Shown: positions 4,475-14,837 of the stretch, in pieces
How positions within the stretch are numbered: position 1 is the first letter of the stretch
Layout of the letters: every line of letters starts with the position of its first letter
IMG/VR virus record: IMGVR_UViG_3300038360_000413
Source: a virus
Taxonomy: Duplodnaviria; Heunggongvirae; Uroviricota; Caudoviricetes
Strand: one strand, 5' to 3'
Length of the DNA stretch: 14,838 nucleotides
Notes under the pieces: model-generated
Told to the model about the DNA's origin: nothing
Databases searched by the model: none
What the model saw: the letters and a program-made list of their open reading frames with translations, nothing else
Made by a program: the position numbers and the translations under genes

Positions 4475-5023
4475 CTAGTGTTTATTTATTTTTTCGTAAG
4501 GGCCCCCAAGGATCTCCTCTCCAAGTCTTCTTCCAACACCCATTCCAAGTAATGCGGCTAAAGCAACACCTACTATTTTTTTAGTATTGCTTTTTCCCTT
4601 AAATAAATTAGGGTTTAATTTATTAACTACCAATGGGCCGGCAGGTAAACCTAAAGCGCCTCCTATTGCATTACCTCAATCTCCAGCCACAGGATTCCTT
4701 CTTTTCAACTCATGGGCTGCCCTTTCGGCTAGTTTCTCGAATACATATTCTGCTTTGTCCATACTTGCTTCTTTTTTCAGCTCCATACGTTTAAATTTGA
4801 CCACTGCATTTTTATCTCCGTAAACTACTTTATAGTAGGTACGTGACGCAGGTTTGCGCTTAAAAAAGCCAGATTTAGGAGTATCTATTCGCATAAAACG
4901 AGCACCAGGTTTGCCAAGCAAGGTAGCTCGTGCCTTACTTTTGTTTTTAGCGGCACTAATATTGAAAGTACCTACATGATGTGCTGCTCCAAATTCATAC
5001 AGTTGCAATTGTTTCTTATCCAT
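4475..5023 (-). CDS. Hypothetical virion-type protein with glycine-zipper segments, 182 aa, one in-frame TGA
   Basis: GAGGAG RBS, MDKKQ start at 5023. Continues through TGA 4676-78 (PVAGD[W]GNAIGGALGLPAG...KKIVGVALAALLGMGVGRRLG) to TAG 4475-77, filling an otherwise empty 200-bp gap. Confidence 0.75.
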
Positions 5024-5025
5024 TC

Positions 5026-6006
5026 TTAATTCTCCTCTAACTGAGCCTCTAAATAACAACCACGAGCTACTGCTGTAAGTGGTTCGTCCACGATTTTAAT
5101 TTCGCTTATTTCTAAAGGAAATTGTTTTGCCTGAAATTGATCTCTAAATACTTCTATAAAACCATTTATTGAAGCCGTGCCGCCGCCAATTATAATTGGT
5201 ATTGGTTTCGGAAAAGTAGGCATATTTGACGATTCAAATTGTTTTGCTAAATTAGCTAACAAATATCTAAATAATACTTCATAATATGTTTTTATAGCTT
5301 GTTGTTCTCTTGTACGCTCCTGCGTTGAGGCAGGATCTATTGTGTAATTTCCTGTTTCTTTTATATATTGAGCTTTCGCTTTAGTAATTCCACAATCTCT
5401 TGCCACGTTCTCATCAATCCAATCGCCTGATTTAGCTATGCTAAAAGTCAAAGCAGACATTCCAGCATATAAAATGGCAAAATTGACCATTCCTGCTCCC
5501 AATGAAATAGCAATTCCAGATAACTCTGAATTTTGTAAACCTACTAATCCTAAAGCTGTTGCTTCATTAATGGCTCTTGCAGAGTATCCTAAAGATTCTA
5601 TAATTTGCTTTAATACATCTTTATGATAGTCAATTTCTTGTGATTTATCAATAGGTTTTCCTGGGATACAATAAACAATGCGCTCGTTTTCTTGAGAAGC
5701 CGTTCCAACCAATCCGGAAATAATTTCTCGTAATATAGGGAAAGCATCTTGCTCAGTTGGATTTAATAATCCCTGTGCCATAGGTCGTTTTAGATCTTTA
5801 TTTCCAAAAACTTGTGCATACTCATAGGCTTTTTGTCCTATAATATGTAGTTTGTTATTAATTTCTATATAAGGCACATTAAGTGTTTTAAGTTGTCGAA
5901 GCGTTGTTACAGCTTTATCTATAGTTAAAAAAGCATTTCGTTGTAATGTAATATCTTGATTATTCACCGAAACAAAAAATCCAGTTCCACAGTCAATTGC
6001 TTTCAT
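5026..6006 (-). CDS. Actin-like ATPase (actin/MreB/FtsA/ParM/MamK superfamily), 326 aa
   Basis: Phosphate-1 AIDCGTGFF, connect-1 INEATA, phosphate-2 variant ISLGAGMVN, adenosine motif IIIGGGTA, connect-2 EPLTAVARG. Start placed at ATG 6006 (AAGGA upstream) instead of 6075. Confidence 0.85.
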   Translation of the reverse strand: MKAIDCGTGFFVSVNNQDITLQRNAFLTIDKAVTTLRQLKTLNVPYIEINNKLHIIGQKAYEYAQVFGNKDLKRPMAQGLLNPTEQDAFPILREIISGLVGTASQENERIVYCIPGKPIDKSQEIDYHKDVLKQIIESLGYSARAINEATALGLVGLQNSELSGIAISLGAGMVNFAILYAGMSALTFSIAKSGDWIDENVARDCGITKAKAQYIKETGNYTIDPASTQERTREQQAIKTYYEVLFRYLLANLAKQFESSNMPTFPKPIPIIIGGGTASINGFIEVFRDQFQAKQFPLEISEIKIVDEPLTAVARGCYLEAQLEEN

Positions 6007-6007
6007 T

Positions 6008-6088
6008 TTATAATGTCCATCCTTTATGTTGTTGATAATTTTTATTTTGTTTATTAGAAATTTTATAAATTCCACTTATTACTTTCAT
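6008..6088 (-). pseudogene. Collapsed GIY-YIG homing endonuclease remnant, 26 aa
   Basis: ATG overlaps the upstream stop (TAATG): MKVISGIYKISNKQNKNYQQHKGWTL-TAA. Looks like a GIY-YIG N-terminus joined to an HKGW-type C-terminal tail, with no YIG or catalytic core. Confidence 0.55.
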
Positions 6089-7386: not shown

Positions 7387-7950
7387 CTATCTCCTATACT
7401 TAATTATAAAATTTTCTAATGCTGTTCCTGGGCAATTTTGTTTCCCAAATGAGGAGTGTCCGTAAATAGAAACACACTCCAAGTTTAATTTAGCACTATT
7501 TACTAAATGATTCAAGAGGTTTTCTAAAGCACGCAATTGTTTTTTAGCAGGTTTCTTGGCAGTACCAGTGTGGTTTGGTCCATTAAAATCACCAACTACC
7601 ATAATTCCAATAGAGGCTGTGTTCTGAGTTTTACAATGCCAAGTCACATCGCTAAGCATATTAGCCTGCCATACTTCGCCTTTTTTTGTAATACCATAGT
7701 GATAAGCAAACTTAGGAGCCCCGTTAGGAGAAAGATGATTGTTTGAGCCAGGAGTTATGTGGTAGTTGTTGACAGCCTCTATACTGCCATCACCCAATTC
7801 TTGATGAATAATAATTTTATTTATTTTAGATAAAGAACGCTTAGATCAGGTGCGAGTCGGATGAGCTGGTAACTCATTTATTTTGTTTATAATTTTAAAA
7901 GGAGAACCATGCTCTCCAAATGGATTAAATCTTCTAATTGTGTCAAACAT
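7387..7950 (-). CDS. N-acetylmuramoyl-L-alanine amidase (Amidase_2/PGRP-like) endolysin, 187 aa, TGA at codon 35
   Basis: Zn-amidase motifs IIIHQ, FAYHYGI, WHC..QNTASIGI, YGHS, NCPG. The first Zn-ligand His (IIIHQ) lies upstream of the track ORF start. The frame reaches ATG 7950 only through TGA 7846-48 (ELPAHPTRT[W]SKRSLSKINKIIIHQ). Confidence 0.88.
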
Positions 7951-7966
7951 TTGTTTTGTTGGTTTT

Positions 7967-8065
7967 TGGCAGGCATGGAAGGTACCGCCCCCTCATAGCG
8001 ATGAGTTGGAATCACCGCATCAGGATTTGAAGTCCTGTGCCATAGCTTCATGGCTATACACGCCT
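7967..8065 (-). tRNA. Non-canonical tRNA, anticodon UCA (opal decoder, probably Trp), 99 nt, CCA encoded
   Basis: Acceptor AGGCGTG/CATGCCT, then G73 and CCA. D-arm GCCATG-AAGC-TATGGC. Anticodon arm CAGGA-CTTCAAA-TCCTG (TCA at 8030-8028). 26-nt variable region with stem GCGGTGA/TCATCGC. T-arm GAGGG-GGCGGTA-CCTTC. All arms pair, and it occupies an otherwise empty intergenic gap. Confidence 0.85.
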
Positions 8066-8072
8066 ATTAATT

Positions 8073-8420
8073 TTAAATTCTTTTTGAGTGTTCGGCTATA
8101 CCTAATTTTCCAACATGCTTTCTACACCATTGCCAACATATGTCAATTAATGTGCGATGATGAGAGTTGCCGTACACGTCTTGACCTACATCACATACTA
8201 AGACTTTTGAATGTAGTTCTTTTGGAACGCGAGATCGGTATCTCTCTTCCATTATGATTATATGATCCGCCCAATTTCCTAACATAATAATTGTTTCTTT
8301 TGAATTACTATTAAGGCCTAGTGGTATTACGTCAACTGGCTCAAAATGTAATTTTAGCACATCTGCCAAAGCTACGCTGCGCACAAGTCCATGTTTACAA
8401 CAAGTAATTATTTTAGTCAT
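8073..8420 (-). CDS. Low-molecular-weight phosphatase-like protein (CX5R), 115 aa
   Basis: N-terminal P-loop C-KHGLV-R-S after a beta strand (IITC), WADHIIIME, and a C-terminal DVY resembling the LMW-PTP DPY acid loop. Confidence 0.7.
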   Translation of the reverse strand: MTKIITCCKHGLVRSVALADVLKLHFEPVDVIPLGLNSNSKETIIMLGNWADHIIIMEERYRSRVPKELHSKVLVCDVGQDVYGNSHHRTLIDICWQWCRKHVGKLGIAEHSKRI

Positions 8421-8429
8421 AAAAATATT

Positions 8430-8651
8430 TTATTTTATCTTACAACTTACTGATATAGGTTTATCGGTAAATAAACCATGTTTCTTCGCAAGTTTTAAAA
8501 GATGAGACTCAATAACAACTTTACCAATTTCTCTACTTGGAACAGGATTATCTAAAATATATGTAGTTTTATCAATATGATTATCGATTTGTATTGAAAA
8601 ATTATTTGATCCTGCAATTGGATCTACGTGTCCTTCAAAGAATTTATCCAT
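8430..8651 (-). CDS. Hypothetical protein, 73 aa
   Basis: ORF track; TAATG overlap with the holin stop; TAA end. Confidence 0.7.
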   Translation of the reverse strand: MDKFFEGHVDPIAGSNNFSIQIDNHIDKTTYILDNPVPSREIGKVVIESHLLKLAKKHGLFTDKPISVSCKIK

Positions 8652-9082
8652 TATTTACTAACTTTGGTTACTTTTTCATATGTACGTAATGTAGACATAC
8701 CAAGTAAAGCTAATACTAATTGAAACAAGCCATCCGCACTTATCGGAAAAGCTGCAACAGCTCCTGTTGCTAAACTAATCTTAGCCCAAAGATATGCTCC
8801 TACAATGTATTGAGGAATGAAATAAAAAGCCAAAGACGCTGCGCAAACCCAGCCGATTGCTGGACGCCAGCCTGCAACAAACCTGCTTTTATGTTGTGCT
8901 TCTAGCTTATTAATTTCTACTTGAAGTTCTGCAGGACGCTGCTTTAGTTTCTCTAAAACAGCGGCTCCTGCTAATTTTTCTTCTTTACTGGTAAGAACTT
9001 TATCTAAAACGTTTCCTATAGCATCTATAGGTTTAGCTAAAGTATCTCCACCGGCGCCGAATAATGTTGCCCAAATACTCAT
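8651..9082 (-). CDS. Holin of the GTA-holin/3TM (DUF3154) type, 143 aa
   Basis: EINKLEAQHKSRFVAGWRPAIGWVC...LFQLVLALLGMSTLRTYEK matches the family pattern I know; C-terminal hydrophobic helices; same operon as the amidase. Confidence 0.85.
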   Translation of the reverse strand: MSIWATLFGAGGDTLAKPIDAIGNVLDKVLTSKEEKLAGAAVLEKLKQRPAELQVEINKLEAQHKSRFVAGWRPAIGWVCAASLAFYFIPQYIVGAYLWAKISLATGAVAAFPISADGLFQLVLALLGMSTLRTYEKVTKVSK

Positions 9083-9414: not shown

Positions 9415-10299
9415 TTAAGAATTTGTGTTAAAATTATATTTAATTGTAACTTGTACATCGCCAGGAACATTAGTAGGATTCATAGTTATACTAATAGCGT
9501 CACCTTTTACAAATTCAGCGGATGAAAAAGTAAAATCGTACGTAGTTTTTATAACACTCAAGGTTGCTGTTGCTTTATGTGTCGAATCGCCTCCATAAAC
9601 AGAGTTGATATAGACTTTTAAATCTGTTTTTCCTGCTGCCGCGCCACCTCATATTTGTATTTGGGTTATTTTTCCATCCCATGGAGCAATTAAGCGGTGT
9701 TGATATGCCTCCCCAGCAGCTTCTACATTAGAGCCACATAAAGGAATATATACAACAGTAGACACGGCCGTAGTAAAAGCATGATTAGTAAAGTGGTCTA
9801 TTAATCCCTTAAAAGATTGTATACTGCCTCCGGTAAGATCTTTTTTTAACTCAATATCACTACCTGATACATCAAAGGCGGCATCTAGGTTTGTAATTAA
9901 CCCACTATGTGTTTCCAGCGCACCAACTAAGTTTTGACTTGTTCTATAAAAATCAGCAGCCGTATATATTCCAGAGCCTGTGGCATCTGGCACTACAATG
10001 ACAGCGCGAACTAACGGATCTATGGGTTGCATACCGCTCGCGGTTAGAGCCTGTACAGTAGTCCCGCTAATAGTAGCTGTTACGTATGGATTTATAAGCT
10101 CTAAACCATCTCTAAGGTTATCAACCTTGGTTTGTATATCACTTATAAAACTATCAAGAGTTACAGTAGTATTTAATAATTGATCTCTGAACGGAAGTCC
10201 AGATAGATAGTTAATACCGCTAATAGTTCCACTAATAGTAGCATTAGCACTAACGGCTTGGAATGTGTTAAGTTTTGTTAAATCTAAATATGCTATCAT
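9415..10299 (-). CDS. Probable virion structural protein, 294 aa, one in-frame TGA
   Basis: Track ORF continues through TGA 9649-51 (IAPWDGKITQIQI[W]GGAAAG...FVKGDAISI...VQVTIKY) to TAA 9415-17, giving a complete beta-rich C-terminal domain. Confidence 0.8.
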
Positions 10300-10301
10300 G
10301 A

Positions 10302-13300
10302 TTAAGTTGGTATTTTTCTAATAATTAAATTTTCTCCAGAACCACCACTAGTTGAAGGGAATCAGATATTTGCACCATCTCACACAGCGTTTCTGATTCC
10401 AGCGTAAGCACTTCCTACGGGAATACTGCCCTCCTCTACCGCTGTTTCTGTATTAAATATGGTTAAACTAGCACTAGACGCTAATGTTAAATAGGCTTTT
10501 CTTCCGGCAAATATCCCGCCAGTTACCTGCGTAGATACAAGCAATGATTGCCATTGAAATGGAACATCTCCAGATTGCTTAAAACGCGCTAATGTAGGGT
10601 TAGCTGATTGTGATGCTCCATAAAAACATCAGACATCTATACCATCATAAAAAATCGGTTTTATTCCTCACGCAGGAAGAGAGGTATCTCAGGACGCTCC
10701 GTCAATATTATATTTTGCCATTTTACGAAGTCCATTTCAAGTACCTTGTTCCGCTGTTCAAATATAAGTACCATCATATAATATACGATCTGTTCACATT
10801 ACCCCATCAAATCCAGCAATAGTAGCAGAGGAATCTCCTGCTATGCTATATTTCTCAAGAGCATTAGTGTCTCAAGTAGCTGCACCATCATTACACGATC
10901 AAATATTACTACCATCACATATTAACATAGAAGCGGCAACTGCTAGCGTATGAATGTGTGTATGTGTTGACATGTCGTCCGGGTCTACGCTAAACAAATA
11001 GCTTTCTTCGGTTTCGTCATCGATAATAGCCGTATAAAGCAGAGAGCCGTCTGTAGTAATTGAGTATAGTGCTGGGTAATCTGTAGTGGAAGCTCCAGGA
11101 ACTGTAATATCTTGAGAAGTAACTGTTTTAGTATGTACATTTATTTTATACATACGAGGAACAGACGATAATCCCAGTACATCTGTATATCCTCCACAGA
11201 TAAATAAGTCTGTTTTAAGAAAAACCATAGATATAGCATCAAAGGTATAATTAGCTGGGATTGTAATAGTTATGTCCTCTATTCCAGCAAATGTGTTGTT
11301 TCCTAAATTAAAAGAATAGTTATGTTCAGGGATACTGGCAATTCTACCTGTTAAATGGCCACCTTTAAAGTATCCTCTTCCAGTTTTTGCACCCGCATCA
11401 AATTGAGTAATATCATTATATGTGGCTACTAAGCCACTAGTAGTATTTAGTACAACTCTAACGTCTCCGTCACTTAATCCAATCTCATTACTATCTAAGT
11501 TAAAATAGGTAGTTCCGTCAGTTGATCTAAGATTTCCAATAACTACAGAATCTGCTGTTAATTCCCTGCTTACACGAAAGTCATCAATGTAACTTGTAGC
11601 AGCACTATCGGAGTATAGCTCAATCGCAATAAATCTTGTAGAAGATCCTAAGCTTCCAACAGCGCTTGGATGAGACCCCATAATAAAAGAATTTTTGTGC
11701 CAAGTATTGCCTACATGATTTACATAAGATACGGTAGTGTAGGAACTTAAATAATGTTTATCTGTATCAAATTCATGAACTCTAACTCTAAGATTGTTCG
11801 AACCAATACCTATAAAATGATAAAAACTAATAAAATAATTTTCTTCAGAAGTAACTGGTATAAAATGATTCGGATGTGTAGTAGCTAGTGTCCAACTGCT
11901 AGCTACTTTTAAACTATTATCTCCTGAGTGTGAAACTCCAGAATCATATTGTGAGGCATTTAATTCGACATAAGAACTTGGAGGTGCTCCAGTATTATAA
12001 TCAAATGTACTTAGCCAACTATAAACCACTCCACCATCTAAACTTAGAGTAGTACCCGCTTGTTCGAAATCAGAATTGCTAATTATATTATCATTTCCAG
12101 GCAATCCGAGAACTCCTTGAGTACCTGTATTTCCTGCAGGTCCACATATACCAGTTATTCCTTGTGGACCACAAGGTCCTGTTATTCCAGTTATTCCTTG
12201 TGGGCCGCACGGTCCAGTAATTCCTGGAGGACCACATGGACCTAATATTCCAGTTATTCCTTGTGGGCCACATGGTCCAGTAACTCCTGGAGGACCGCAT
12301 GGACCTAATATTCCAGTTATTCCTTGTGGGCCGCATGAGCCTTGTATACCTTGAGGACCGCATGATCCCAGTATTCCAGTTAATCCTTGAGGACCACATG
12401 AACCTTGTATACCTTGAGGACCACATGATCCTAGTATTCCAGTTATTCCTTGAGGACCGCAAGAACCTTCAGGGCCTTGAGGACCACATGGACCAGTTAT
12501 TCCTGTATTTCCTGGGGCACCTTTTTCACCTGTATTACCTATTGGACCACAAACACCTGTAGCGCCGGCTAATCCTTTTGGACCGCACGAACCTGTAATA
12601 CCTTGAGGACCACATGGACCTAATATTCCGGTTACTCCTTGGGGACCACATGAACCTTGTATACCTTGAGGACCGCATGAACCAATTATTCCAGTTATTC
12701 CTTGCGGACCGCACGGTCCAGTAACTCCTGGAGGTCCACATGAGCCCAGTATTCCGGTTAATCCTTGTGGGCCACATGGTCCAGTAACTCCTGGAGGTCC
12801 ACATGAGCCTAATATTCCGGTTACTCCTTGGGGACCACATGAGCCTTGTGAACCTTGAGGACCGCATGAACCAATTATTCCAGTTATTCCTTGCGGGCCG
12901 CACGGTCCAGTAACTCCTGGAGGTCCACATGAGCCTAGTATTCCGGTTAATCCTTGTGGGCCGCATGGTCCAGTAACTCCTGGAGGACCGCATGATCCTA
13001 GTATTCCAGTTAATCCTTGTGGGCCGCATGAGCCTTGTATACCTTGAGGACCGCATGAACCAATTATTCCAGTTATTCCTTGTGGGCCGCATGGTCCAGT
13101 AACTCCTGGAGGTCCACATGAGCCCAGTATTCCGGTTAATCCTTGTGGGCCACAAGGTCCAGTAACTCCTGGAGGTCCACATGAGCCTAATATTCCGGTT
13201 AATCCTTGTGGGCCACATGAGCCTTGTATACCTTGAGGACCACAGGCACCTTTTATTCCTGTATTTCCTTGAATACCTTTTTCACCTGTATATCCTATTG

Positions 13301-14837
13301 GGCCACATAAACCGATTATTCCAGTTAATCCTTGAGGGCCACACGGTCCGGTAACTCCTGGAGGACCACATGGACCTAATATTCCAGTTATTCCTTGTGG
13401 GCCACATGGTCCAGTAACTCCTGGAGGACCGCATGGACCTAATATTCCAGTTATTCCTTGTGGGCCGCAAGAACCTTCAGGGCCTTGAGGACCACATGAA
13501 CCGAGTATTCCAGTTACTCCCTGAGGACCACATGAACCTTGTATACCTTGAGGACCGCATGATCCTAGTATTCCAGTTACTCCTTGAGGACCACATGAAC
13601 CGACTAAACCAGTTGATCCAGTTGGGCCTGTAGGACCTTGGGGACCTTGATCACCTTGTACACCTTTTGGACCGCCAGGTCTAATAGTTAAAGTTTCAGT
13701 AACATCTATTGGAGCATAAGCTACTAAAGTTCATGCATAAAAGTGACATATTTCAGAACTATCTGGTGTTATGTCCACATCGATGTCAGTTCAATTGGTA
13801 CCGCTTATACCTGTACTAAGTTCAACAGAACCCTTTCCAGTAACATCAGCTACAGGAGTTCCACTATCTAATGTATAAGTAAATTTAGCTCCAGCAACCA
13901 TATCATGAACTAAACTATGTGTATTGGTAATGGCATTATATAACATGAACATGACACTATGCCCAGTACTAGGGCCGACTGGTACAAGAGGATCATTATC
14001 TATTATATATTGTGCTGCAGTTTCTCCAGTGTTAACTCCATACATTACTCATAAAATTGGATCACCACCGTTATCTTGTACTAAAGAATATGAAAAACTA
14101 TGAGGTCCGATTGCTCCTGTTATTCCGGCAGGGCCTATCTCGCCGTCTGGACCTGTAGAGCCTTGATTACCTATGCTTCCCGTAAACCCTTGAGGCCCAC
14201 AAATACCTGTTATACCTTGAGGACCGCATGATCCTAATTCTCCGGTAAATCCTTGAGGACCACAAACACCTGTTATTCCCATTGGACCACATGATCCTAA
14301 CTCTCCAGTAAATCCTTGAGGACCACAAACACCGGTCAAGCCCATTGGACCGCATGATCCTTGTTCTCCGGTAAATCCATAAACACCTTTTTCACCTGTA
14401 TTACCTATTGGACCGCATGATCCTAACTCTCCGGTAAATCCTTGAGGACCACAAAGTCCTGTTATACCTTGAGGACCACATGATCCTAACTCTCCGGTAA
14501 ATCCTTGAGGACCACAAAGTCCTGTTATACCTTGAGGACCACATGATCCTAATTCTCCGGTAAATCCTTGAGGACCACAAACACCTGTTATTCCCATTGG
14601 ACCGCATGATCCTAACTCTCCGGTAAATCCTTGAGGACCGCAAAGTCCTGTTATACCTTGAGGACCGCATGATCCTAACTCTCCAGTAAATCCTTGAGGA
14701 CCGCAAAGTCCTGTTATACCTTGAGGACCACATGATCCTAACTCTCCAGTAAATCCTTGAGGACCGCAAAGTCCTGTTATACCTTGAGGACCGCATGATC
14801 CTAATTCTCCTGTAAATCCTTGAGGACCACATACACC
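10302..14837 (-). CDS. Giant collagen-containing tail-fibre/receptor-binding-like protein, >=1511 aa, 5'-partial, 13 in-frame TGA
   Basis: One frame with no TAA/TAG from 14837 to TAA 10302-04; track ORFs 14049..14597, 13791..14045 and 10899..12104 are all in this frame. Order: collagen 1, ~142-aa globular domain, collagen 2, CBM4/9-like domain (NSDFE...HSGDNSLKV...YIDDFRV), linker, beta-propeller with CDGSNIW, YDGTYIW, YDGIDVW, WDGANIW. Next gene starts 2 nt after the TAA. Confidence 0.85.
12096..13673 (-). repeat. Collagen domain 2: about 175 Gly-X-Y triplets built from 18/27-nt units ([18 protein letters not shown])
   Basis: Gly register is identical at both ends (mod 9) and there are no stops in frame; about 45 Cys by manual count. 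Confidence 0.92.
14100..14837 (-). repeat. Collagen domain 1 (partial): >=82 Gly-X-Y triplets, 63-nt tandem unit [21 protein letters not shown]
   Basis: Near-identical 63-nt copies are visible at about 14410-14838; about 20 Cys. Confidence 0.92.

Follow-up and report, generated by a model that had tools for sequence, protein, structure and literature searches.

How does a phage whose late genes hold many in-frame TGA codons translate them, and what is the unusual tRNA gene that stands directly before its endolysin gene? Both questions are raised by the stretch of DNA analysed here (the window; 14,838 nt), which is the minus strand of genome positions 69387-84224 in the 210,263-bp IMG/VR virus record IMGVR_UViG_3300038360_000413, a marine phage genome that is 99% complete (CheckV) and has 36% G+C. 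The element in question is a tRNA gene with a UCA anticodon and a long variable arm (Table 1), referred to below as the window tRNA. An earlier sequence-only reading had taken it for the opal decoder of the phage, a tryptophan-accepting tRNA on a body possibly repurposed from selenocysteine tRNA (tRNA-Sec) or an allo-tRNA. In our analysis the opal-decoder and tryptophan parts of this claim were supported and the tRNA-Sec/allo-tRNA scaffold was not. The main point had been missed, namely that the long arm copies the tryptophan anticodon loop and that this copy is conserved across a family of phage tRNAs. Taken as a whole, it is probable that the gene encodes a functional opal-suppressor tRNA of a phage using TGA as Trp, with the arm as a proposed handle for tryptophanyl-tRNA synthetase (TrpRS).

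Results

Architecture of the window tRNA

The minimum-free-energy (MFE) fold of the reverse complement of 7967-8065 is a cloverleaf exactly as described before, and the structural details of that description (99 nt, UCA, acceptor pairs, G73, CCA, D arm, 26-nt variable region, 7/5 acceptor/T arrangement and T loop) were all borne out by sequence and fold. The 7-bp acceptor stem AGGCGUG/CAUGCCU contains A1-U72, G2-C71 and G3-C70, and is joined by the 4-nt connector UAUA to the D stem GCCAUG/UAUGGC, which includes one G-U pair and is closed by a loop without GG. The 7-nt anticodon loop has U33 and a purine at position 37, and the 26-nt variable region consists of AU, the hairpin given in Table 1 and UAU. 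The T stem is GAGGG/CCUUC, and its loop keeps C56 and has lost U55 and A58. The elbow consensus (D-loop G18G19 and T-loop U54-U55-C56-R57-A58) is thus missing, and a possible G19-C56 pair is left. All 30 stem pairs are intact, and an eighth acceptor pair would be U-C. The MFE was -36.9 kcal/mol versus -29.4 +/- 3.4 for shuffled sequences (z = -2.2; 6 of 200 shuffles equal or better), and the fold energy by itself is only moderate evidence for a real tRNA.

Tryptophan identity is set by the discriminator (base 73), by the anticodon and by the first pairs of the acceptor stem (review PMC9976931). The full acceptor set of bacterial tRNA-Trp (G73, A1-U72, G2-C71, G3-C70) is present in the window tRNA, as had been recognised from the sequence, and the phage's own tRNA-Trp(CCA), with the anticodon loop UUCCAAA, shares A1-U72 and G73. 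As for the anticodon, the decoding arm shows U34-C35-A36, and the full C-C-A with a preceding U and a following A sits on the loop of the variable arm. The class-I body with a short variable loop, a feature of tRNA-Trp, is replaced by the 26-nt region. Judged from these bases, the long variable arm is a second anticodon-arm-shaped hairpin showing U-C-C-A-A, a mimic of the tryptophan loop and not an arm of the Ser or Sec type.

Conservation of the variable-arm loop

Relatives of the window tRNA were found by synteny or with end-anchored patterns, and contigs are named here by our own handles. In six tRNAs, comprising the window tRNA and five relatives, the stems of the variable arms (4-7 bp) are unrelated in sequence, and each is closed by a 7-nt loop N-U-C-C-A-N-N, which is UUCCAAC in the window and L197, GUCCAAA in L156, L229 and L231, and GUCCAUA in L237. 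A scan of IMG/VR that fixed the acceptor ends (AGGGG...CCCCUGC) and the UCA loop only, leaving UCCA in the arm free, returned 23 further distinct cloverleaves of 92-97 nt on large phage contigs. UCCA occurs in the arm of 22 of these cloverleaves, which makes 28 of 29 family members overall. The loops CUCCAAA (10), GUCCAAA (8) and UUCCAAC (6) recur among the members, and UUCCAAA also occurs. In a 24-sequence alignment excluding the window, U-C-C-A is invariant and the pairs of the arm stem show 9-11 double changes each. An invariant loop on a stem that diverges in sequence and length, within a diverging body, implies that the loop bases are read by something.

We define a two-arm tRNA-Trp(UCA) as one having a 4-7 bp arm with the 7-nt loop N-U-C-C-A-A-N beside a 5-bp UCA arm, and the window tRNA fits this definition. 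The same scan with class-I spacing returned five distinct one-arm UCA tRNAs versus the 23 two-arm sequences, so the two-arm form is the common one among IMG/VR UCA tRNAs with these acceptor ends. One-arm and two-arm forms can differ by little beyond the hairpin (L398/L401 versus L250). The anticodon loop is identical and the anticodon stem is 5 bp in all family members. Ribosomal decoding requires a 5-bp anticodon stem, and a CCA arm of 4-7 bp next to a UCA arm of always 5 bp therefore suits a role off the ribosome. In a full-text literature search, to which most subscription journals were out of reach, no description of a tRNA with a second arm bearing its cognate anticodon was found.

Relatives, synteny and subtypes

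The syntenic relatives were reached through the 351-aa protein of the gene after the endolysin, searched in a large protein collection (marine metagenome contigs); the same protein gave no relatives in IMG/VR, and a blastn search with window positions 7700-8400 gave no match among phage GenBank records. Three sister phages (L156, equal to L157 and L158; L229; L237), with a cassette amino-acid identity of about 50-60% to the window phage, carry a 96-98-nt UCA tRNA in the same slot, directly before the endolysin, and L160, L161, L235 and L239 have no gap and no such tRNA there. The sister tRNAs share A1-U72, G2-C71, G3-C70, G73, the anticodon loop CUUCAAA and the long arm with the window tRNA, and the tryptophan acceptor marks do not vary among the members identified through synteny alone (window, L156 and L237). 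The acceptor stem of L237, AGGGGCG/CGCCCCU, is what we take to be the acceptor stem of E. coli tRNA-Trp.

The covariation check suggested by the sequence-only reading came out in favour of the cloverleaf. For 26 stem positions in the six tRNAs, pairing is kept in 153 of 156 cells, most positions showing 2-5 pair types, and the RNAalifold consensus of the 24 other members, with the window excluded, has the same five helices and compensatory changes in 20 of 26 pairs. This stem covariation among relatives is the decisive evidence that the window cloverleaf exceeds chance.

Two subtypes can be distinguished in the elbow. In the sister tRNAs (subtype A), the D loop (GCUGGG) and the T loop (UUCGAUU) are of the ordinary kind, in keeping with the elbow consensus; the T loops of the relatives are UUCGAUU or AUCGACA. 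The 6-bp D stem with a 4-nt loop seen in the window tRNA is absent from these syntenic copies and is found in L197 and L231, which belong to unrelated phages and in which an 8/4 arrangement fits. The window tRNA is 55-59% identical to L197/L231 and 43-46% identical to the syntenic copies, which suggests that it diverged fast or was replaced. The Sec-like D arm is thus peculiar to a subtype and no sign of family ancestry, since the D and T arms of the sister copies are canonical. From its sequence, the window tRNA belongs to the two-arm tRNA-Trp(UCA) family, as a divergent member that escapes scanners.

Other searches added little. Matches listed by a metagenome pattern scan were almost all due to chance, with one real member (L348, equal to L231), and the glycosyltransferase contigs of relatives (L152 and L154) end just before the fibre gene, short of the tRNA slot. 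A holin-based locus search was set aside as uninformative, as its 63 loci, at about 40% identity, came from small unrelated marine phages. The exact 15-mer of the anticodon arm gave only chance matches in IMG/VR and one Sec-like tRNA (L085/L071). This tRNA (L085:10745-10834, minus strand, and its L071 counterpart) has a 6-bp D stem, a 4-nt D loop, a long arm, UCA and G1-C72, and looks like a genuine tRNA-Sec; its arm does not have the full UCCA motif.

Behaviour of tRNA scanners

It had been expected that standard scanners would miss or mislabel the window tRNA, and this is what happened. ARAGORN made no call at its position, even at 85% thresholds, and labelled the syntenic relatives tRNA-SeC(tca). 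The Rfam tRNA model (RF00005) just accepted it with 30.5 bits versus a gathering threshold of 29, through a partial match that covers model positions 8-63 only and aligns the variable arm as the T arm. The Rfam tRNA-Sec model (RF01852) gave 31.1 bits versus a gathering threshold of 47, and scored the ordinary Ser and Lys tRNAs of the phage higher than the window tRNA. A family covariance model of our own (R1) was rejected as a discriminator, as it did not separate the window tRNA (50.0 bits, full length) from the phage tRNA-Ser (47.8) or the Sec-like tRNA (51.9).

Meaning of TGA in the late genes

Three regions of the genome, at about 20-26 kb, 42-75 kb and 180-192 kb, contain tightly tiled frames that open only with TGA as a sense codon, and the fibre gene then becomes a single frame of more than 1511 codons, 13 of which are TGA. 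For TAG, a genome-wide frame comparison showed no recoding pattern, and the frames opened by it gain read-through tails only. The meaning of TGA was read from three paralogous GT4 glycosyltransferases (7, 6 and 3 TGA) aligned with 120 homologues. At the TGA columns, W is found in 119/120, in 106/120 and in 11/11 close relatives, and Y in 119/120, with a mix of F, W and L in the rest; Ser, Cys and Gly are found at none of them among the 120 homologues. The endolysin agrees with this picture. Under translation table 11 the start of its Amidase_2 domain is missing, whereas the frame read through its one TGA leads to the ATG at 7950. Of 141 homologues, 105 have W in the column of this TGA, 18 have Y and 10 have F, and the endolysin of the sister phage L237, which has two TGA, has TGG at the corresponding position.

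Tryptophan codons in the late genes of the window are 20 TGA versus 21 TGG, and with about half of them being TGA an efficient decoder is needed. Across the sister loci, the ratio TGA/(TGA+TGG) was 0.26-0.49 with the tRNA versus 0-0.18 without it, which is a trend only, given crude definitions of the open reading frames (ORFs) and differing locus content. By the alignment evidence TGA stands for Trp in the late genes of this phage, and the claim that Trp rather than Ser or Sec is the inserted residue is supported.

Search for other decoders

ARAGORN found 26 other tRNAs and a transfer-messenger RNA (tmRNA) at 104-131 kb of the genome, on the opposite strand. They include Trp(CCA) and a CUA tRNA, and none of the 26 has the anticodon UCA. 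A custom scan for UCA cloverleaves (class I or II, any acceptor, both strands, 210-kb genome) returned the window tRNA only. No canonical tRNA-Trp(UCA) that might do the decoding in its place was thus found elsewhere in the phage genome, and the role of opal decoder, as first proposed, falls to the sole UCA cloverleaf of a genome with many in-frame TGA in its late genes. No TrpRS/TyrRS-type synthetase, release factor, SelA or SelB was found in the phage genome, and without a phage TrpRS the charging would have to be done by the host enzyme.

In the phage tRNAs for Ser, Leu, Tyr, His, Thr and Cys, the loops of the variable arms are short and unrelated. The Cys, His, Thr and Ile(UAU) tRNAs (genome c116674-126563) are 85-93 nt long and have hairpin variable arms despite being class-I species, and their arm loops do not copy their own anticodons. 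The CUA tRNA (c115365-115439) is a canonical 75-nt molecule with A73, an amber suppressor called 'Pyl' by ARAGORN. A tRNA-like element at c130456-130525 lacks a proper D arm. Its anticodon loop CUUCCAAA has 8 nt and equals a Trp loop with one additional U, and the element has G73 and its CCA is encoded; it scores 25.3 bits with the Rfam tRNA model, below the threshold, and could be a decayed tRNA-Trp or a four-base decoder. The tmRNA (c104475-104855) has the tag peptide GKTQFALAA.

Gene neighbourhood

The tRNA gene lies between the holin gene and the TGA-bearing endolysin gene, whose ATG is 16 nt past the CCA end of the tRNA (Table 1).

Table 1. Features of the window, with positions counted from its first letter.
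Feature	Position	Strand	Evidence
tRNA(UCA) gene, 99 nt, encoded CCA (7969-7967), G73 (7970)	7967-8065	-	Sequence, MFE fold, covariation, partial match to Rfam tRNA
Anticodon arm, stem CAGGA/UCCUG 5 bp, loop CUUCAAA, UCA at 8030-8028	8021-8037	-	
Variable-arm hairpin, 7-bp stem GCGGUGA/UCAUCGC, loop UUCCAAC (8011-8005), C-C-A at 8009-8007	7998-8018	-	
D arm with 6-bp stem and 4-nt loop AAGC, a feature of subtype B that resembles tRNA-Sec in shape only	8039-8054	-	
T arm, 5-bp stem, non-canonical loop GGCGGUA	7978-7994	-	
Endolysin (Amidase_2) gene with a single TGA in frame (7848-7846), which lies upstream of the catalytic domain	7387-7950	-	
Holin gene without TGA (three transmembrane segments; GTA_holin_3TM / phrog_3427), the upstream member of the lysis cassette	8651-9082	-	
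Collagen-like tail-fibre gene, 5' end beyond the window, 13 in-frame TGA, putative suppressor client	10302-14837	-	

In three seawater metatranscriptomes, a few 151-nt pieces of the cassette were found at 8321-8783 and 9461-10302 and none over the tRNA; these are contigs with possible DNA carry-over. A promoter/terminator scan around the tRNA gave no more sites than shuffled sequence. Two ORFs overlapping the tRNA, 7883-8257(+) and 7887-8051(-), were dismissed as spurious, and a frame under genetic code 4 running from 8061 through the tRNA was set aside, since a proper ATG (7950), like the amidase domain, is found downstream of the tRNA.

Beside the lysis cassette, in the window (5026-6075, minus strand; 349 aa) and in all sister phages, there is a gene for a Volactin-like actin-fold protein, the window copy of which has a strong Pfam Volactin match (222 bits). 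A small protein of about 100-130 aa is also kept in the clade (L156:8627-8983, L161:6255-6569 and window 4676-5059, minus strand), and it has weak precomputed matches to the mitochondrial carrier family (PF00153), which is odd for a phage. The tail-fibre gene contains long Cys-rich collagen-like G-x-y repeats (GPQG/CGP), and the contigs of related phages stop at this gene, probably because the repeats break assemblies. Just upstream of it, at 63-68.5 kb of the genome (L003:4026-9506), lie the three GT4 genes with one other ORF between them, and the position of these genes, with 3-7 TGA each, suggests fibre glycosylation.

Discussion

The observations above can be joined in a model of late gene expression. 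The tRNA would be transcribed with the lysis cassette and then cut out, host TrpRS would charge it with Trp, and its UCA arm would read UGA on the ribosome in competition with release factor 2 (RF2). Such suppression would lead to full-length structural proteins, the three glycosyltransferases and the endolysin. For charging, the U-C-C-A-A loop of the variable arm would give TrpRS the C34-C35-A36 identity that was lost from the decoding arm by the change of C34 to U, so that an 'identity anticodon' and a 'decoding anticodon' would stand on separate arms. The parts of this model differ in strength. The window tRNA is very probably a real Trp-inserting UGA decoder, whereas for the CCA arm as a working TrpRS handle the case appears evenly balanced. 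That the tRNA splits the two jobs of the anticodon, with the UCA arm decoding UGA and the CCA arm serving as a pure identity tag for TrpRS, is a tentative proposal that we rate slightly lower still. An exchange of the two hairpins below the D stem, by which one molecule would read both UGA and UGG, is very improbable at best.

Several points weigh against the proposed suppressor with its handle. Aminoacylation, suppression and expression of the window tRNA are predictions, and a working L-shape is assumed for a molecule lacking U55, A58 and the D-loop GG. The combination of G73 with a long arm is also a mark of SerRS (seryl-tRNA synthetase) substrates, and the R1 scores given above place the tRNA-Ser and the Sec-like tRNA next to the window tRNA. 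For the handle in particular, the tip of the variable arm lies far from the position of the anticodon on a synthetase in the established tRNA architecture, so TrpRS would have to bind unusually. Moreover, opal suppressors derived from tRNA-Trp accept Trp (cited in 10.1101/2021.08.26.457843) and one-arm UCA tRNAs with the same acceptor exist, so the arm is not strictly required.

The last two of these points would be well explained if the tRNA is a real Trp-inserting opal suppressor whose CCA arm is no TrpRS handle, a possibility that we regard as rather unlikely yet deserving serious weight. The arm could then be the relic of a duplicated anticodon arm that is retained for folding, could act as an antideterminant that keeps off other synthetases, could be bound by a modification enzyme or a phage protein, or could help the tRNA in its competition with RF2. 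Some one-arm tRNAs are close to two-arm ones, as described above, and the hairpin arms without mimicry on the phage His, Thr, Cys and Ile tRNAs indicate that long arms serve another use in this lineage. What such an explanation leaves unaccounted for is the loop itself, as U-C-C-A-A is invariant while the stem, its length (4-7 bp) and the body diverge. A relic would have drifted, and the invariant bases are exactly those that TrpRS reads (PMC9976931).

The remaining alternatives would give the tRNA a different amino acid or no function at all. Charging with Ser, through a SerRS that reads the long arm and G73 of an allo-tRNA-like class-II suppressor so that TGA means Ser, has a precedent in allo-tRNAs with 8/4 bodies that insert Ser in E. 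coli (Mukai et al., PMC5389517), and the relatives L197 and L231 fit an 8/4 arrangement. It is nevertheless highly unlikely, since the TGA columns are W or aromatic and never S (119/120, 106/120 and 105/141), A1-U72 takes the place of the G1-C72 of Ser tRNAs, the 7-nt arm loop is unlike the short loops of the phage Ser tRNAs, and the window copy is 7/5. A selenocysteine tRNA would share UCA, G73, the 6-bp D stem with its 4-nt loop and the long arm, and would explain the SeC label that ARAGORN put on the relatives. However, the body is 7/5 and not 8/5, the tRNA-Sec model score stays far below its gathering threshold, neither SelA nor SelB was found in the phage, the sister copies do not have the Sec-like D arm, and single genes contain 13 or more TGA at Trp columns, which together make this identity barely conceivable. 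The same score, arrangement, missing Sel proteins and normal D and T loops of the sister copies are the grounds on which the repurposed tRNA-Sec or allo-tRNA body was discarded. Finally, the deviant T and D loops, the ARAGORN rejection and a fold z of only -2.2 are what would be expected of a decayed or idle tRNA, with UGA being read instead by the near-cognate tRNA-Trp(CCA), by a host tRNA or by the CUUCCAAA-loop element, which ends in G73-CCA. We consider this very unlikely as well, because all 30 stem pairs are intact, CCA is encoded, the slot ahead of the TGA-bearing endolysin is conserved and the codon counts of the late genes call for an efficient decoder; the 8-nt-loop element itself has no D arm and falls below the Rfam threshold.

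A tryptophan-inserting suppressor of the two-arm type would be of interest in several respects. A decoder that is too far from the tRNA consensus for ARAGORN and only half-aligned by Rfam is one reason why suppressors go unfound, and the two-arm design to which the window tRNA belongs is widespread. With the gene standing between the holin gene and an endolysin gene gated by TGA, the link proposed between code switching and the timing of lysis can be tested directly. If the arm is a TrpRS handle, it represents a new principle of tRNA identity in which the identity anticodon is uncoupled from the decoding anticodon. It would then be a portable 'identity module' of phage origin, by which any decoding anticodon could be charged with Trp, and a ready-made scaffold for genetic-code engineering.

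Comparison with known systems

Late and lysis genes in which TGA is recoded to Trp were described by Borges et al. for the Agate and Jade phage clades (10.1101/2021.08.26.457843). In that study, suppressor tRNAs were found in only 35% of the TGA-recoded phages and non-canonical ones were suspected, the Jade suppressor was located in a 'code-change module' directly upstream of the lysis genes, and the question was raised of how host synthetases charge such suppressors. The window phage resembles Agate and Jade in having in-frame TGA in structural and lysis genes, TGA meaning Trp, a suppressor by the lysis cassette, charging that would rely on TrpRS, and a host that presumably uses the standard code. 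It differs in being a marine phage of 210 kb and not a gut phage, and in having no phage TrpRS or release factor 1 with the tRNA. Whereas no tRNA architecture is given by Borges et al., the present tRNA has a class-II shape with a CCA-bearing arm and is missed by ARAGORN. In another study, 13 of 13 phage tRNA(UCA) inserted Trp in E. coli extract, and tRNA shape was not discussed (10.1101/2025.10.30.685624).

In comparison with bacterial tRNA-Trp and its opal suppressors, the window tRNA has the same G73, A1-U72, G2-C71 and G3-C70 and an anticodon loop of the form CU-N-CA-AA; in E. coli tRNA-Trp this loop is CUCCAAA. Unlike tRNA-Trp, a class-I tRNA with a 5-nt variable loop, it has a 21-nt hairpin that repeats the Trp anticodon loop, and it further differs in the pair C4-G69, the 6-bp D stem and the deviant T loop. 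Bacterial tRNA-Sec (RF01852) is similar in UCA, G73, the 6-bp D stem with a 4-nt loop and the long arm, but its 13-bp 8/5 helix, G1-C72, SelA/SelB pathway and rare UGA sites do not apply here. Irregular long-armed tRNAs of bacteria and phages have been reported with Ser, His, Cys and Ala identity, with Trp unmentioned (Mukai et al. 2017, PMC5389517). Like the allo-tRNAs of that paper, which also occur in phages and some of which act as suppressors, the present family is phage-borne and has a long arm on a non-standard body, and L197/L231 share the 8/4 split. Unlike them, the window tRNA is 7/5 rather than 8/4 or 9/3, and its TGA codons align with W/Y/F rather than Ser; an arm that mimics an anticodon is not described in the allo-tRNA paper.

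The closest parallel to the arm itself is with the anticodon mimics that recruit synthetases, such as the operator in the E. coli thrS mRNA (PMC9976931), in which a hairpin likewise displays a cognate anticodon loop. Those mimics lie in mRNAs and regulate translation, whereas the mimic described here lies inside a tRNA, beside a different decoding anticodon.

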